Sequence record: NC_014260.1
Reading direction: 5' to 3' (one strand)
Source of the DNA: Escherichia phage IME08
DNA: 64,000 bases
The notes below the pieces were generated by a model. It was not told the origin of the DNA, did not search any database, and saw only the letters and a list, made by a program, of their open reading frames with translations. A program made the position numbers and the translations under genes. Shown in pieces: positions 3,978-37,634 of this stretch (position 1 is the stretch's first letter; every line of letters begins with the position of its first letter).

Positions 3978-4215
3978 CCTTGATGCATGATTCAGCCATA
4001 TGAATTAATGTTTCTGGAGTATCATCTACCATTACATTAAAGCTAAATTCCACAGCCCAATCAGTGAAAACATAAACCTTTACGACATCTTCGCTTTCAC
4101 CGTCAGTACAGCCTTCGAACCAGAATTTAATGATTGAAGGATTGCCATCGTCGTCAATAACCATACAATCATGTTTAAAGCATAATCCTGATTTTTTGAA
4201 TTCATCTAAAGTCAT
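3952..4215 (-). CDS. Hypothetical protein (46.2-like position)
   Basis: 87-aa ORF, start overlaps the gene 47 stop. Confidence 0.45.
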   Translation of the reverse strand: MTLDEFKKSGLCFKHDCMVIDDDGNPSIIKFWFEGCTDGESEDVVKVYVFTDWAVEFSFNVMVDDTPETLIHMAESCIKDAYNDENV

Positions 4216-5234
4216 CGTGTAACCTCATTATAAAGTTGTGCAGCCATAGTCTTAAGGGCTTTAACATCGTCTTCAGTGTGGCCATCAGGAAGGGCGTCGA
4301 TATAATCATACATCATATCCAAGAGGGACTTAACTTCATCTTCCTCTTCAGAATCATCGATATCAACACTGTTATCTACCTTAGACACGATACGTAAAGA
4401 ATGGACGACCTTTTCAAGCTCTGATTCGAACTTAGTAAGGCCATCATCGATTTTATCGACTATAACACGAACTGCAATATTTGTAAAATCTTTGTAATCG
4501 ATAGTCGCGTTAGGATAATGAATCTTACGGTGCCAACAGGTTTCATTGATGACGAAATCCATTGTATGGGTTTCTGTATCGAAAATCCAGAAGCCGCGAG
4601 GGTCGTTTTCATCACCTGCAGTCAGGGTCCATGGCGTACCAATATACTTAACGTTTGCTGCATCAGAAATAGTGTGGAAGTGGCCTGACCAAACTTGCTT
4701 ATACCTCTTAAGGAAATCAGGTTCTAAACCATGAGATTTCATTCCTTTATAGAAATAGAAACCATTTAATTCCCAGTGACCTATACAGAAATCTGCTGTA
4801 GTATTTTTGATATGGTCCATGATATCAGTAGTGTTTTCTTCACACATCCATGGAATCAAATCAATTTCGGTACCATCAAAGTTAACCGTAGTAGGTTTCT
4901 CAATAACCTTGATATGGTCGTATTTACCCAGAACTTCAGAAGCAGCGTTCGGAGTCAAGGTATTTTTGTAGTGTGCATCATGGTTGCCGACGACAGTATA
5001 CATGGTAATGCCGTTGGTTTTAAGCAAATCTGAAATATGTCTAGCAAATTCCATACACTTATGAGTAATTGCTTTACGAACATCAAAAATATCACCATAC
5101 TGAATCCAGACAGTGATACCATTTGCTTTAGAATAATTGATGGCATCTTTGATGCCTGCCAATTGGATGTTTTGCACCCAAGGGTCGTCGTTCTTCACTC
5201 CAAGGTGCCAGTCACCCGTATTAAGAATTTTCAT
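4212..5234 (-). CDS. 47: Recombination endonuclease subunit gp47 (Mre11/SbcD-like phosphoesterase)
   Basis: Start at MKILNTGDWHLG (metallophosphatase motif I), about 340 aa as T4 gp47 (339); GNHD motif present; synteny with 46. Confidence 0.88.
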   Translation of the reverse strand: MKILNTGDWHLGVKNDDPWVQNIQLAGIKDAINYSKANGITVWIQYGDIFDVRKAITHKCMEFARHISDLLKTNGITMYTVVGNHDAHYKNTLTPNAASEVLGKYDHIKVIEKPTTVNFDGTEIDLIPWMCEENTTDIMDHIKNTTADFCIGHWELNGFYFYKGMKSHGLEPDFLKRYKQVWSGHFHTISDAANVKYIGTPWTLTAGDENDPRGFWIFDTETHTMDFVINETCWHRKIHYPNATIDYKDFTNIAVRVIVDKIDDGLTKFESELEKVVHSLRIVSKVDNSVDIDDSEEEDEVKSLLDMMYDYIDALPDGHTEDDVKALKTMAAQLYNEVTR

Positions 5235-32646: not shown

Positions 32647-32874
32647 TTATTTTCCTAACGAAACACGAGTAGGTTTTTTACCAAAATAGTCTTCGTAAGA
32701 ACCATCTAAACGGCCTGCTTTAGACCGACAATACGAATCATACTTTTTGTAATAAGTCATCTCGGTATTATAACGTGGGTGTCTATCAGCCATAATAATA
32801 CTTAGTGGCCAACCTTTGGCATAATCGCGAAGACCGTTTATTTTACGAATGTATCGTTTTTTCAATTTTAGCAT
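32647..32874 (-). CDS. Hypothetical basic protein
   Basis: 75-aa ORF. Confidence 0.4.
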   Translation of the reverse strand: MLKLKKRYIRKINGLRDYAKGWPLSIIMADRHPRYNTEMTYYKKYDSYCRSKAGRLDGSYEDYFGKKPTRVSLGK

Positions 32875-33092
32875 GAGCTTGGGTACCAGATTTTACCATC
32901 GGATCGAGCAACGAAGGTGCGACCAGCTTCTTCACCATAACAAGAGCTATTCAGCCAATCTTCGAGACGAACTTCACCGTCATAATCATCGAGCTCAACA
33001 CCAAAATCCTGAGCAGAAGCCATATCTTTTACTTTCTTATACAGTGCAGCCAGTTCAAGTGCCGCTTTTTCTAATTCATTAATATCAGTCAT
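32868..33092 (-). CDS. Small acidic protein, W-SSS-C tail family member 5
   Basis: Start at MTDINELEK (SD AAGGTGA); C-terminus ...GKIWYPSSC. Confidence 0.45.
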   Translation of the reverse strand: MTDINELEKAALELAALYKKVKDMASAQDFGVELDDYDGEVRLEDWLNSSCYGEEAGRTFVARSDGKIWYPSSC

Positions 33093-33102
33093 TTTTATCA
33101 CC

Positions 33103-33312
33103 TTAGCAAGACATAGAGGAGCTAAACCAGAAACCTTCACCTTCAGGAATACCGTAGTCATCACGGACCCATTCGTAATCATCATATTCCGGACTAGAAG
33201 CTGGAATATATTCTTCGCCACCAGCGTGGAAGTGCTGACCTGTTTCGTCAGCCACAGACTGGCCTTTACGTACTAATTCACGGATTTGTTTTTCAATTTC
33301 ATCAATAGTCAT
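33103..33312 (-). CDS. Small acidic protein, W-SSS-C tail family member 4
   Basis: 69 aa; C-terminus ...GFWFSSSMSC. Confidence 0.45.
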   Translation of the reverse strand: MTIDEIEKQIRELVRKGQSVADETGQHFHAGGEEYIPASSPEYDDYEWVRDDYGIPEGEGFWFSSSMSC

Positions 33313-33321
33313 TTTATTTCC

Positions 33322-33519
33322 TTAGCATTCGTAAGAGGAGGACACCCAAGAGGTACCACTAATAGTAATACAACCGTTATAAAGCGTGATATGTCGTTCT
33401 AGGTCACGAACACCATCGATATAGATATCGGCTTCTTCGCGTTCTTCTTTACAAATCTGGATAACGTTTTCAATAGCTGCGGCTGCAGTACGGATTGCAC
33501 AATCTAATTCACGAGACAT
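33322..33519 (-). CDS. Small protein, W-SSS-C tail family member 3
   Basis: 65 aa; C-terminus ...TSWVSSSYEC. Confidence 0.45.
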   Translation of the reverse strand: MSRELDCAIRTAAAAIENVIQICKEEREEADIYIDGVRDLERHITLYNGCITISGTSWVSSSYEC

Positions 33520-33528
33520 AATAATTCC

Positions 33529-33810
33529 TTAACATTCAGAAGAAGAGGACACCCAACCACCATTTTCCAGGTCAGTTGTATAGTCATGAGTATTAACAAT
33601 AGCCCATTCAGGATGACCATCTTCTTCCCAGTGGGCCAGGTCAGCTTTCAGGGCGCCAGGAGAATAATAGTCACCGCCCATACCGCGAGCAGGGTATATA
33701 TTAAAATGAGTCTCATATTTGTCTGCAATTTCCTCAGCACGACGAATAGCTTCATGGATTTCTTTTACTGCGGCCAGAAGCTCCGGGTTGTTATGGTTAT
33801 CATTCATCAT
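33529..33810 (-). CDS. Small acidic protein, W-SSS-C tail family member 2
   Basis: 93 aa; C-terminus ...GGWVSSSSEC; internal EEIADKYETHF. Confidence 0.45.
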   Translation of the reverse strand: MMNDNHNNPELLAAVKEIHEAIRRAEEIADKYETHFNIYPARGMGGDYYSPGALKADLAHWEEDGHPEWAIVNTHDYTTDLENGGWVSSSSEC

Positions 33811-33819
33811 AGCGTTTCC

Positions 33820-34110
33820 TTAGCACATTGCTGAAGAGGAGACCCAAGCACCAACTGTAACGACGCCGTTTTCAACTTCACCGCCGTTGTTTTCAATTTC
33901 ATCTTTAAACCACTGGGAGCATTCATAACCGACAGGATAATATGTACGGCCTGAACCATAATCACCGGTACCGAATTGGATACCATACTTATCGGCAATA
34001 GCTTCACATTCATGTTCGATGGTATTCACTTTATTCAGAAGAGCATAGATAGCCTTTTCTGCAGATTTCTCATCGTTGTGTTCTGGGATTTCGATTTCAA
34101 TTTTATTCAT
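33820..34110 (-). CDS. Small acidic protein, W-SSS-C tail family member 1
   Basis: 96 aa; C-terminus ...GAWVSSSAMC; internal EAIADKYGIQF. Confidence 0.45.
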   Translation of the reverse strand: MNKIEIEIPEHNDEKSAEKAIYALLNKVNTIEHECEAIADKYGIQFGTGDYGSGRTYYPVGYECSQWFKDEIENNGGEVENGVVTVGAWVSSSAMC

Positions 34111-34457
34111 GATTTACATTCCTTAATAAAGATTTCAAGGTCATTACGTTTAGTTTGTTTTACATGCTCATTATAATTAGCCATCTCTAAAGCATATCTC
34201 TTACGGATGGGAGCATTCAAAGCGTTTGTATGGCAAATATCATACACAACAGGGATAAAATAAGCCACGACAGCCGGAGCGATTATCATATAAAAACCCA
34301 TCTCAATAGGCGTGACTCCTTCGATTGCCGCCATAACCGTGGTCATTACCAGACCAACCAAACCTCCTAGCATACCGGTGACAATTCCCATAAATAAGGA
34401 AATAGCAATATCATATTCAGCCAATTGATAAACATGTGATGAAAGACTAGGCCGTTC
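34107..34457 (-). CDS. Membrane protein
   Basis: Internal Met (MERPSLSSH) of track ORF 34107-34634; two or three TM helices. Confidence 0.4.
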   Translation of the reverse strand, partial: ERPSLSSHVYQLAEYDIAISLFMGIVTGMLGGLVGLVMTTVMAAIEGVTPIEMGFYMIIAPAVVAYFIPVVYDICHTNALNAPIRKRYALEMANYNEHVKQTKRNDLEIFIKECKS

Positions 34458-34989
34458 CATTTTGAACCTCTTTAGCGTATTCGCGACATTCAGCAATAAA
34501 ACGATTAAGCTTCCGTTGTTGTTTTCGAATCTCTGATGTATACTCATTAGCCAAAATAATAAGCTCATCTTTATCGTAATTTTTAATATCCGAATAACTC
34601 GGGCGGCGGTCGACCATACCAAAGTGGTCACCATTTTCTAACATCAAATAGCATACTAAATGGTAATCATCGTCAGCATCAACAAGCTGTTTACAATCAC
34701 TTGGTTCATTTAAAGCGTATACTGAATAGCATAATCCAGCGAATTCCACTCGTTGAATACCCAGATTTACGTCAATAATTTCTAAAGCTTCTGCAAAAGA
34801 AAGGTCTTCAGCTAAAGCGAAGATAAAGGGCAATTTGGTAGTGTGTCCATGGCTACTTGTTCGACTTAAGAAATCATTGGAATAACCTAGGTCTTGGCGA
34901 ATTCTATAAAGAACTGCATTAGTTTCATGGGAAAGACCGCTATGTTTAAACCAATCAATATTTGATATCAGGTCATCATATAAACTCAT
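34447..34989 (-). CDS. Hypothetical protein (180 aa)
   Basis: ORF with strong SD GGAGGAG. Confidence 0.5.
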   Translation of the reverse strand: MSLYDDLISNIDWFKHSGLSHETNAVLYRIRQDLGYSNDFLSRTSSHGHTTKLPFIFALAEDLSFAEALEIIDVNLGIQRVEFAGLCYSVYALNEPSDCKQLVDADDDYHLVCYLMLENGDHFGMVDRRPSYSDIKNYDKDELIILANEYTSEIRKQQRKLNRFIAECREYAKEVQNGTA

Positions 34990-35012: not shown

Positions 35013-35030
35013 GGGAGACCGAAGTCTCCC
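35013..35030 (-). promoter_or_regulatory. Intercistronic UUCG-tetraloop hairpin
   Basis: GGGAGAC-UUCG-GUCUCCC between the 35038 gene stop and the 34989 gene SD; no U-run follows. Confidence 0.4.
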
Positions 35031-35037
35031 GGTAACA

Positions 35038-35631
35038 TTACTTAAGTGAATTAATGTAGTCGTCGATATCAGCAGAAGTCGTATCCATTCCAACCTGTGG
35101 GCCTTTAAACGTTTCTACACGCAGCAGGGTATCTTCAATATCAATCTTAGTCAGTGCAGCGATTTCAACAACATCATCGGCAGTAGCAATACCAAGGGCA
35201 GCCATATTACGAGTTTCACGGATGTACTCGAGCTTAACAGCCAGTTCCTGACGAGAGTCATCAAGTTCCTTGACCTTCAGTTTAATTTCATTACGCATTT
35301 CGATATAATCATCGGCTTTCTTACGAAGCTGAGTAGCCGTACGACGATAAAGGAGGCCGAGTTTAGCATGTACCTGGACATCAGCGCCTTCGGCAATCAG
35401 TTTACGAATTTCACGTTCTTTAGAAGCAGCAAGCTGGTCTTTTTCATTAGCCAACGCACGAATACGTTTTTCTTCATTCACAGACTTAACATGAGCAGTC
35501 TGGAGTTCAGTGATTTTATCAATCAGGGTAGAAGCAGCTTTAGTATACTGGTCTTCGATTGACAGGTTCTGAGCCATTGCAGTACCCAGTTTAGAACGGA
35601 TGAATTCAACGATTTTCTTTAAAGTGTTCAT
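35038..35631 (-). CDS. Coiled-coil protein (possibly PspA/IM30-like)
   Basis: 197 aa, long heptad-rich helical sequence with the length and charge pattern of PspA-family proteins; similarity is not established. Confidence 0.4.
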
Positions 35632-35673
35632 AGTATTTCCTTCAGTTGGTTAAGATTTATAATCCATGAGGAC

Positions 35674-35703
35674 ATTATACCCTGTCCTCTGAGGGATGTA
35701 AAC
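35674..35703 (-). promoter_or_regulatory. T4-type early promoter
   Basis: Minus strand GTTTAC, 18 nt, TATAAT; inverted repeat GAGGACA/TGTCCTC. Confidence 0.5.
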
Positions 35704-36523: not shown

Positions 36524-36546
36524 AAAAGGAGACCGAAGTCTCCTTT
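36524..36546 (-). terminator. Rho-independent terminator (UUCG tetraloop)
   Basis: GGAGAC-UUCG-GUCUCC followed by UUUU, right after the stop of the 36549-37166 gene. Confidence 0.45.
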
Positions 36547-36548
36547 CA

Positions 36549-37166
36549 TTATTTACGGGTCTTTTCGAACTGGGCCGCGTCACCAGCCAGACGACGAGCT
36601 TGACGAAGTTTGTTGTCGATTTCTTCGCGCATAGGCTGGGTATACTTAAGGCCTTCAACCGTCAGATAGAGGCGATAAAGGTCTGGGGTGTCTAGGTTGT
36701 TAATGTGCTGTCCGTTACGAAGAGTATTGAATTCACGAACAAGGTGTTTAGTTTCGGATTCGATTTCAGAAACCAAAGAAGCCAGTTGATTATATTTTTT
36801 AACTATAGTGCTGGTGTCAAACTTGATTTTAGGTTTAGGAGCTTCTTTTACCGGTTCGGCTTTAGGCGTCGGTTTCGGCGCTGCAACTTTGGCCTGGGCT
36901 GCAGGTTTAGCAACAGGAGCTTTAGCTGGTTTAGCAGGCTTAGTAGCGCCGCCAGCTACGATATCTTTAAAAGCTTTAGAAGCTTTGTAATATTCTTTCT
37001 GGTTACTAGTATCAAAACCATACATATCATAAACGTTTTTAAAGAATTCGGTGGTGGTTTTAGTCCCAGAAATTTTATCATAAGCCGCTTGCCACATATC
37101 TTTAGTCATGCGGACGCCGGCTTCGGTCAGAACGCTTTCGTTCAAAAATTCATTGTAAGTTTTCAT
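36549..37166 (-). CDS. Internal head protein (IPIII-like, basic Lys/Ala/Pro-rich) with capsid targeting sequence
   Basis: 205 aa; N-terminal [11 protein letters not shown]; Ala/Lys/Pro-rich basic middle region; its own late promoter upstream. Confidence 0.6.
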   Translation of the reverse strand: MKTYNEFLNESVLTEAGVRMTKDMWQAAYDKISGTKTTTEFFKNVYDMYGFDTSNQKEYYKASKAFKDIVAGGATKPAKPAKAPVAKPAAQAKVAAPKPTPKAEPVKEAPKPKIKFDTSTIVKKYNQLASLVSEIESETKHLVREFNTLRNGQHINNLDTPDLYRLYLTVEGLKYTQPMREEIDNKLRQARRLAGDAAQFEKTRK

Positions 37167-37401: not shown

Positions 37402-37477
37402 TGGCCGAGACAGTAGGGATCGAACCTACGACCCAGGACTTAGAAGGTCCTTGCTCTTCCTTCTGAGCTATGCCTCG
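37402..37477 (-). tRNA. tRNA-Arg (anticodon UCU)
   Basis: 76 nt cloverleaf folded by hand: acceptor CGAGGCA/TGTCTCG, D-stem GCTC/GAGC, anticodon stem AGGAC/GTCCT with loop CTTCTAA, T-arm GTAGG-TTCGATC-CCTAC, encoded CCA. Confidence 0.8.
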
Positions 37478-37481
37478 TATT

Positions 37482-37556
37482 TGGCGGACATGCATGGATT
37501 CGAACCATGGACCAATTGATTAACAGTCAACTGCTCTACCACTGAGCTACACATCC
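37482..37556 (-). tRNA. tRNA-Asn (anticodon GUU)
   Basis: 75 nt: acceptor GGATGTG/CATGTCC (two G-U pairs), D-arm GCTC-AGTGGTA-GAGC, anticodon loop CTGTTAA, T-arm CATGG-TTCGAAT-CCATG, encoded CCA. Confidence 0.75.
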
Positions 37557-37560
37557 AAAT

Positions 37561-37634
37561 TGGTGGCCCTGGGTGGAATCGAACCACCATCCAGCGATTA
37601 TGAGTCGCTCGCTTGACCGTCCAGCTACAGGGCC
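37561..37634 (-). tRNA. tRNA with CAU anticodon (Ile2/lysidine-type or Met)
   Basis: 74 nt: acceptor GGCCCTG/CAGGGCC, anticodon arm AGCGA-CTCATAA-TCGCT, T-arm GGTGG-TTCGATT-CCACC, encoded CCA; anticodon arm resembles bacterial tRNA-Ile2. Confidence 0.7.

Follow-up and report, generated by a model that had tools for sequence, protein, structure and literature searches.

The product of gene e.6 of the T4-like phages belongs to a branch of the PspA/IM30 (Vipp1, LiaH) family that is small, strongly diverged and confined to phages, an assignment made here for the copy carried by the window, i.e., the whole stretch of 64,000 nucleotides of Escherichia phage IME08 (NC_014260.1) that was analyzed. 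On computational grounds, the homology to PspA/IM30 and the corresponding fold are very probable. The best explanation for the observations as a whole, which we consider reasonably probable, is that e.6 is an early-expressed, diverged PspA/IM30 protein that stabilizes the inner membrane.

The e.6 gene, its family and its expression signals

The gene is an ATG-to-TAA open reading frame of 197 aa plus stop at positions 35038..35631, exactly where the original prediction had placed it, and lies on the minus strand, which that prediction had not given. On the basis of orthology, family-level homology and fold, it is described here as the coding sequence of a T4 e.6 ortholog and of a diverged member of the PspA/IM30 (ESCRT-III) superfamily. 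The window comes from a T4-like phage. In tblastn searches the product matches a protein of Escherichia phage AnYang (Straboviridae, Dhakavirus) with 100% identity, and the AnYang copy is annotated as 'hypothetical protein'. The window gene is the ortholog of T4 e.6 (NP_049742, UniProt P39224): both proteins have 197 aa and can be aligned without gaps over 197/197 aa with 146/197 identical residues (74%), and both genes are found downstream of the tRNA cluster in the early-transcribed region between the tRNA cluster and gene e, which is transcribed counter-clockwise. The window copy represents the Dhakavirus (AnYang) version, with no substantive difference to T4 e.6, the homologs of which include gp163 of Klebsiella phage Metamorpho.

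The gene is real and conserved across phages, as the window protein matched 1,109 phage records (tblastn), all but two of them (1,107/1,109) at ≥80% coverage. Most of these phages infect Escherichia, Klebsiella, Shigella, Aeromonas, Enterobacter, Yersinia and related hosts, and the family is confined to phages infecting Enterobacterales and Aeromonas. Membership in the T4 e.6 family (PHROG 1203) is given by synteny in T4-like genomes and by a full-length profile match to phrog_1203 (PHROGs, 'unknown function'; E 1.6e-83), in which residues 1-197 are aligned with profile positions 1-199 of 200.

As far as sequence can show, e.6 of the window is transcribed from its own early promoter, in line with the original prediction. 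A promoter-like site of the sigma-70/T4-early type (TTTACA-17 nt-TATAAT) at 35674..35702 (minus strand) lies ~40 nt before the ATG and has 11/12 consensus matches. The region preceding T4 e.6 has the GTTTACA (-35) and TATAAT/TATTAT (-10) boxes in the same place, whereas the sequence between these boxes and the start context has diverged between the window phage and T4. The Shine-Dalgarno sequence AAGGA was read from the sequence at 35638..35642 (minus strand), at a distance of 6 nt from the ATG, and T4 e.6 has exactly the same Shine-Dalgarno/start context, AAGGAAATACTATG. In a time-resolved omics study, in which the protein was detected, T4 e.6 is classed as 'early RNA / middle protein' (PMC9697503 supplement).

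These expression data also bear on the names under which e.6 homologs are found in databases, which disagree and include 'host specificity protein', 'tail completion protein', 'recombination endonuclease subunit D12' and 'shock protein A', the last being given to the e.6 copy in one GenBank record. That e.6 is a virion or morphogenesis protein would follow from merely propagated names in some GenBank, UniRef and BFVD entries, and is highly improbable: these names contradict one another, the gene has an early promoter in the early tRNA-to-e region and its T4 counterpart an early RNA, and likeness to tail proteins does not go beyond generic coiled-coil matches. The virion annotations 'host specificity protein' and 'tail completion protein' were rejected as unsupported and contradicted by early expression. 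Among the conflicting names, the evidence backs 'shock protein A' only.

A 7-bp GC-rich hairpin with a UUCG loop (35013..35030, minus strand; -13.4 kcal/mol) is located 8 nt past the e.6 stop codon and before the ribosome-binding site of the next gene. The corresponding place in T4 is occupied by a hairpin with another stem (GGGGC-UUCG-GCCCC), and the post-e.6 hairpin is a predicted terminator in a T4-like genome paper (PMC5931544). At 35013..35030 there is no U-tract, and the fold is not significant against shuffles. The hairpin is a candidate terminator or RNA stabilizer. A near-identical UUCG hairpin (GGAGAC-UUCG-GUCUCC core) follows two genes of the window, at 35013..35030 and at 36525..36546 (both minus strand). 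The latter comes after a 205-aa ORF and is more stable (-15.2 kcal/mol, z = -4.0), and the repeated hairpin gives the impression of an RNA stability or terminator element that is used more than once.

The 205-aa ORF itself (36549..37166, minus strand) contains a lysine/alanine/proline-rich low-complexity linker (…KPAKPAKAPVAKPAAQAKVAAPKPTPKAEPVKEAPKPK…) and gave no significant Pfam match. It is located between the tRNA cluster and the genes at the e.8/e.7 position, where T4 has no counterpart of the same size. In the tRNA cluster (37402..37634, minus strand) three tRNA genes only were found (Arg-TCT, Asn-GTT, Met-CAT), compared with eight tRNAs plus rnaC/rnaD in T4, and in the AnYang annotation a homing-endonuclease gene lies upstream, at the segB position.

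Homology to PspA and Vipp1 at the level of the family

The relationship to PspA is undetectable from the single sequence. The window protein has no match to PF04012 (PspA_IM30) in Pfam even at E up to 10 and thus lies below the gathering threshold of PF04012, which is an operational cut-off and not a biological definition. A phmmer search of PDB with the same protein returned nothing relevant, and hhalign of the window protein alone against an alignment of PspA and cyanobacterial Vipp1 (A6) gave a probability of 0.8%. The closest relatives behave similarly: a profile of 28 close T4-like e.6 relatives (A1) reached 8.8% only against A6 and did not find PspA in PDB, where its best matches were LptE, CopN and KCNQ1, all with E >0.2. 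An exhaustive HMMER search with A1 in 1.84 billion representative proteins recovered no bacterial PspA and just 46 clusters, the representatives of which are without exception e.6-like and, a few fragments aside, ~195-209 aa long; the e.6 family is thus small and closed. A search of NCBIfam gave generic coiled-coil noise only (SMC, LysB), plus one LiaH match at 0.005.

The link to PspA is provided by distant members of the family. Two of these, P0075 and P0069, both from Vi1-like phages, match A1 over their full length (HMMER; E 7.5e-18 and E 9e-21, respectively) and also score above the cut-off of Pfam PspA_IM30 (39.0 and 35.1 bits; cut-off 33.9), with residues 6-146 aligned to profile positions 2-143, while the members P0071 and P0073 reach 22 bits on this profile. 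A phmmer search of PDB with the bridging protein P0075 found nothing. In tblastn, P0075 directly matches annotated e.6 genes of T4-like Aeromonas and Escherichia phages as well as Dhakavirus genomes. Proteins of the P0075 type are encoded by Ackermannviridae (Vi1-like) phages, e.g., Kuttervirus FEC14, and within the e.6 family it is the members from the Ackermannviridae that resemble PspA most, with scores over the Pfam cut-off.

When the whole family is used as the query, the relationship becomes apparent. A profile of the 41-sequence e.6 family alignment with the window protein as its first row (A2), compared with 177,635 distinct PDB sequences, found Vipp1/PspA at all of ranks 1-7 (best E 4.5e-5), the alignment spanning residues 1-146 against 1-147. 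With hhalign, A2 matched A6 with a probability of 95.2% (E 2.6e-8, columns 4-144 against 1-142), which places e.6 residues 1-140 against PspA residues 1-142, in register from residue 1. Against enterobacterial PspA alone the value was 52% (E 1.4e-4), hence the addition of Vipp1 sequences to the PspA alignment raised the probability from 52 to 95%. Controls were clean, as reversed A6 gave 0.3-0.4% (score 15-16) and column-shuffled A6 (20 times) ≤0.4% (score ≤16), and with circularly shifted A6 the same homologous register was recovered. When the five members with a Pfam PspA_IM30 match, whatever its E-value, were taken out of A2, the probability was still 90.1% (E 1.6e-6). Because of these profile matches and the clean reversed and shuffled controls, the similarity to PspA is real at the family level, with the correct N-to-C register, and cannot be explained by coiled-coil composition. 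The alignments reach from alpha0 to alpha3 only, and the C-terminal 55 residues are specific to the e.6 family. The original prediction had described a PspA/IM30-like character that was weak and judged by eye: the character is borne out by the family profile and by the two distant members above the PF04012 cut-off, and the word 'weak' is a fair one for a single sequence that finds nothing in Pfam, PDB (phmmer) or hhalign.

The predicted fold and its relatives

A first single-chain AlphaFold2 model, built on a 28-sequence alignment, had a pLDDT of 70.3, and the model built on the 41-sequence alignment had a pLDDT of 80.9 and a pTM of 0.63. In agreement with the almost entirely helical product that had been foreseen from the sequence, ~88% of the residues are in predicted helices (2-22, 25-80, 86-145, 151-176, and 186-196), the layout of which corresponds, in the model, to alpha0/alpha1/alpha2-3/alpha4/alpha5 of PspA and Vipp1. 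The central hairpin of roughly 120 residues is predicted with high confidence (pLDDT 85-98 in the 41-sequence model), both ends being less certain.

Residues 2-22 (35566..35628, minus strand; pLDDT ~60) form a predicted N-terminal amphipathic cationic helix equivalent to alpha0, with a hydrophobic moment of 0.46 and a net charge of +3; the moment of E. coli PspA residues 2-19 is 0.42. The net charge of this helix is positive in 41/41 family members, most of which have values of +2 to +4. Residues 25-80 (35392..35559, minus strand; pLDDT 89-98) make up the first arm of the long hairpin, which is in register with alpha1 of PspA/Vipp1 in the profile alignments, and are followed by a tip loop (residues 81-85) that includes G82. 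The second arm, equivalent to alpha2/3, comprises residues 86-145 (35197..35376, minus strand; pLDDT 85-98), and is followed by G147, which does not vary among the close T4-like proteins and is conserved to ≥90% in the broad family. Beyond the hairpin, a predicted alpha4-like helix (residues 151-176; 35104..35181, minus strand) has low confidence (pLDDT 50-65) and a family-specific sequence outside the PspA profile alignments, and a short C-terminal alpha5-like helix (residues 186-196; 35044..35076, minus strand), assigned from the model and from conservation, contains the conserved Y192 and L196. The prediction therefore shows the order expected for the family, namely alpha0, an alpha1-alpha2/3 hairpin, and then alpha4/alpha5, the last two at low confidence.

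A Foldseek search of PDB returned Vipp1 at all of ranks 1-10 (E 1.6e-4 to 2.6e-2, ~190-220 aligned columns), followed by the PspA rods of Synechocystis (rank 12), a Vipp1 hairpin fragment (rank 14) and, further down, PspA 7ABK and the ESCRT-III chains CHMP2A-CHMP3. The first model led to the same picture, with archaeal CdvB2 and E. coli PspA 4WHE as further matches. The Foldseek E-values are modest, with generic coiled coils (chemoreceptors, SMC arms, BAR domains) close behind, and the rmsd is large, as expected for proteins that can move their helices from an open to a closed conformation and back. In a viral structure library, significant matches were found only to e.6 homologs. The structural and profile comparisons both led to PspA/Vipp1, the latter through the family profile and not the single sequence, and neither of the outcomes that the original prediction had named as speaking against it, i.e., the lack of any PspA/IM30 profile match and a generic coiled-coil fold, was observed.

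Among known systems, Vipp1 (IM30; cyanobacterial/chloroplast; 7O3W, 6ZVR, 8QBR) is the best match of e.6 in both profile (PDB E 4.5e-5) and structural (Foldseek E 1.6e-4, ~210-220 aligned columns) searches, at 14-16% identity, and the Vipp1 hairpin-tip motif xxGxxxLAxxAL is recognizable in e.6. In contrast to Vipp1, e.6 does not have the Vipp1-specific C-terminal extension (alpha6), and it is phage-encoded and unrelated to thylakoids. E. coli PspA (PDB 4WHE) is similar in size (222 aa versus 197 aa) and has, as is predicted for e.6, an N-terminal amphipathic helix followed by the alpha1-alpha2/3 hairpin, in register from residue 1 to ~142, and like PspA, e.6 is a predicted peripheral membrane protein; however, the identity is ~9-13% and the C-terminal alpha4/alpha5 region cannot be aligned. 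Eukaryotic and archaeal ESCRT-III proteins (CHMP, Snf7, CdvB) share, as judged from the model, the same superfamily fold. Their likeness is much more distant and holds at the superfamily level only, with CdvB2 and CHMP2A-CHMP3 as weaker structural matches, and neither a Vps4-type ATPase nor a MIM motif was identified.

Genomic context and possible roles at the membrane

Pfam searches of the genes near e.6 in the window gave no PspB-, PspC- or PspF-like match. Since e.6 has no such partners (pspBCDE or pspF) nearby and is preceded by a sigma-70-type early phage promoter, compared with the sigma-54/PspF-dependent promoter of PspA, it is a member of the family by descent that stands outside any Psp operon. 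The gene order in T4-like phages is e.6, e.5, e.4. The Ackermannviridae homolog lies in the replication-gene region, between the helicase (gp41-like) and DNA ligase genes, and is followed by a gene for a single-TM protein that is unrelated to e.5 and e.4; no similarity was found between e.5 of the window and the gene downstream of the Ackermannviridae homolog. In two of the Ackermannviridae loci, L006 (Kuttervirus FEC14; 4001..5225) and L004 (6001..7210), the homolog directly precedes the gene of an N-terminally anchored membrane protein of ~190 aa.

The window carries the e.5 homolog (180 aa, soluble) and the e.4 homolog (two TM helices) at 34107..34989 (minus strand), with an overlap of 14 nt and a likely start of the e.4 homolog at 34460. 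Their C-termini are alike (FIAECREYAKEV in e.5 and IFIKECKS in e.4), as are those of T4 e.5 and e.4 (FVKECREYVKAI and FVKESRCKS). Both genes evolve much faster than e.6, and even within the T4-like phages their conservation is weak. The place of T4 e.3/e.2, downstream of e.4, is taken in the window by five tandem small ORFs of 117, 69, 65, 93, and 96 aa (32868..34110, minus strand) that encode acidic paralogs with no obvious known function. They share a C-terminal motif, W-[VFL]-[SN]-S-[SC], with a terminal Cys shortly after; four end in WVSSSAMC, WVSSSSEC, WVSSSYEC, and WFSSSMSC, and the fifth has WLNSSC and a terminal YPSSC.

The neighborhood bears on the question of whether e.6 has kept the PspA fold without a PspA-like activity and serves as a scaffold or adaptor for e.5, for the two-TM protein e.4 or for an unrelated process. 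In both T4-like and Vi1-like phages a gene for a membrane protein follows within one or two genes, the C-terminal third of e.6 is unrelated to PspA, the window subfamily is very far from PspA, and knock-down of T4 e.6 has no fitness phenotype, all of which would suit such a function. Full length and the character of alpha0 are, however, strongly conserved across the two phage families, and the downstream genes are not homologous between them, so that a conserved partner is not evident; a search of the T4-like and Ackermannviridae neighborhoods for a conserved partner gene or module showed none. An adaptor function therefore appears unlikely.

The reading of e.6 as a membrane-stabilizing PspA/IM30 protein can be put in mechanistic terms. 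T4-type phages shut off host transcription. The host psp response is then probably not inducible, and a phage would supply its own PspA-like protein because the psp operon could no longer be induced after the shut-off. In this way, e.6 would stand in for the sigma-54/PspF-dependent psp response of the host. Like PspA and Vipp1, e.6 would use its N-terminal helix to attach to the inner membrane from the cytoplasmic side, and its hairpins may assemble into polymers that limit the leakage of ions and protons and keep the membrane energized through infection, with tail penetration, superinfection and the accumulation of holin during lysis inhibition as possible sources of envelope damage. We propose membrane binding, polymerization and the physiological role only tentatively, and the stabilization of the inner membrane during infection or lysis inhibition, already suggested in the original prediction, is inferred from the kinship with PspA. 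The CRISPRi-ART study gives T4 e.6 as a gene of unknown function and scores its knock-down as 'Not Fit', i.e., without a fitness defect under standard conditions; any role would therefore be conditional, and the result fits such a conditional role (PMC11879866 supplement).

Alternatively, the likeness to PspA could be directed at proteins. The e.6 family is found only in phages of Enterobacterales and Aeromonas, and hosts of these groups carry psp operons (the presence of the operon was checked in E. coli K-12). In E. coli, it is the hairpin of PspA that binds PspF, and e.6 is predicted to have this hairpin; moreover, e.6 is an early, non-essential accessory gene, as is typical of host-takeover and anti-defense genes. 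The phage protein might thus be a PspA mimic that does not protect the membrane but binds PspF, PspB/C or another PspA partner, or abortive-infection effectors, and it would either hijack or silence the host Psp response or act as a counter-defense against effectors that depolarize the membrane. We regard this as improbable, as an identity of ~9-13% to E. coli PspA over the aligned region makes the conservation of a specific interface doubtful, and the conserved cationic amphipathic N-terminus points to lipid binding.

The likeness of e.6 to PspA has been published in brief: in a 2021 genome announcement, Metamorpho gp163, a T4 e.6 homolog, was matched by HHpred to E. coli PspA (4WHE_A) at 99.9% (PMC7862958). 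The identification is hence not new, and neither was the PspA-like guess of the original prediction. A search of the literature for a function of e.6 or for phage-encoded PspA/ESCRT-III proteins yielded this announcement and the mention of a 'pspA-like' gene in gut jumbo phages, with no functional study among the results, and phage copies are not discussed in the reviews of the Psp and ESCRT-III families that were consulted. What is added here is that the PspA identification is confirmed with controls and extended to the Ackermannviridae.

[quoted passage not shown] Membrane stabilization by e.6 would bear on the old question of how the infected cell keeps its membrane sealed and energized after tail puncture as well as during superinfection and lysis inhibition. 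In its furthest form, which is possible but doubtful, T4-type and Vi1-type phages would carry their own ESCRT-III-like membrane-repair polymer that replaces the phage-shock response of the host and is needed only under envelope stress, such as superinfection, prolonged lysis inhibition or host defense systems that kill by membrane depolarization. If this is true, e.6 would be the first functionally defined virus-encoded PspA/ESCRT-III protein.
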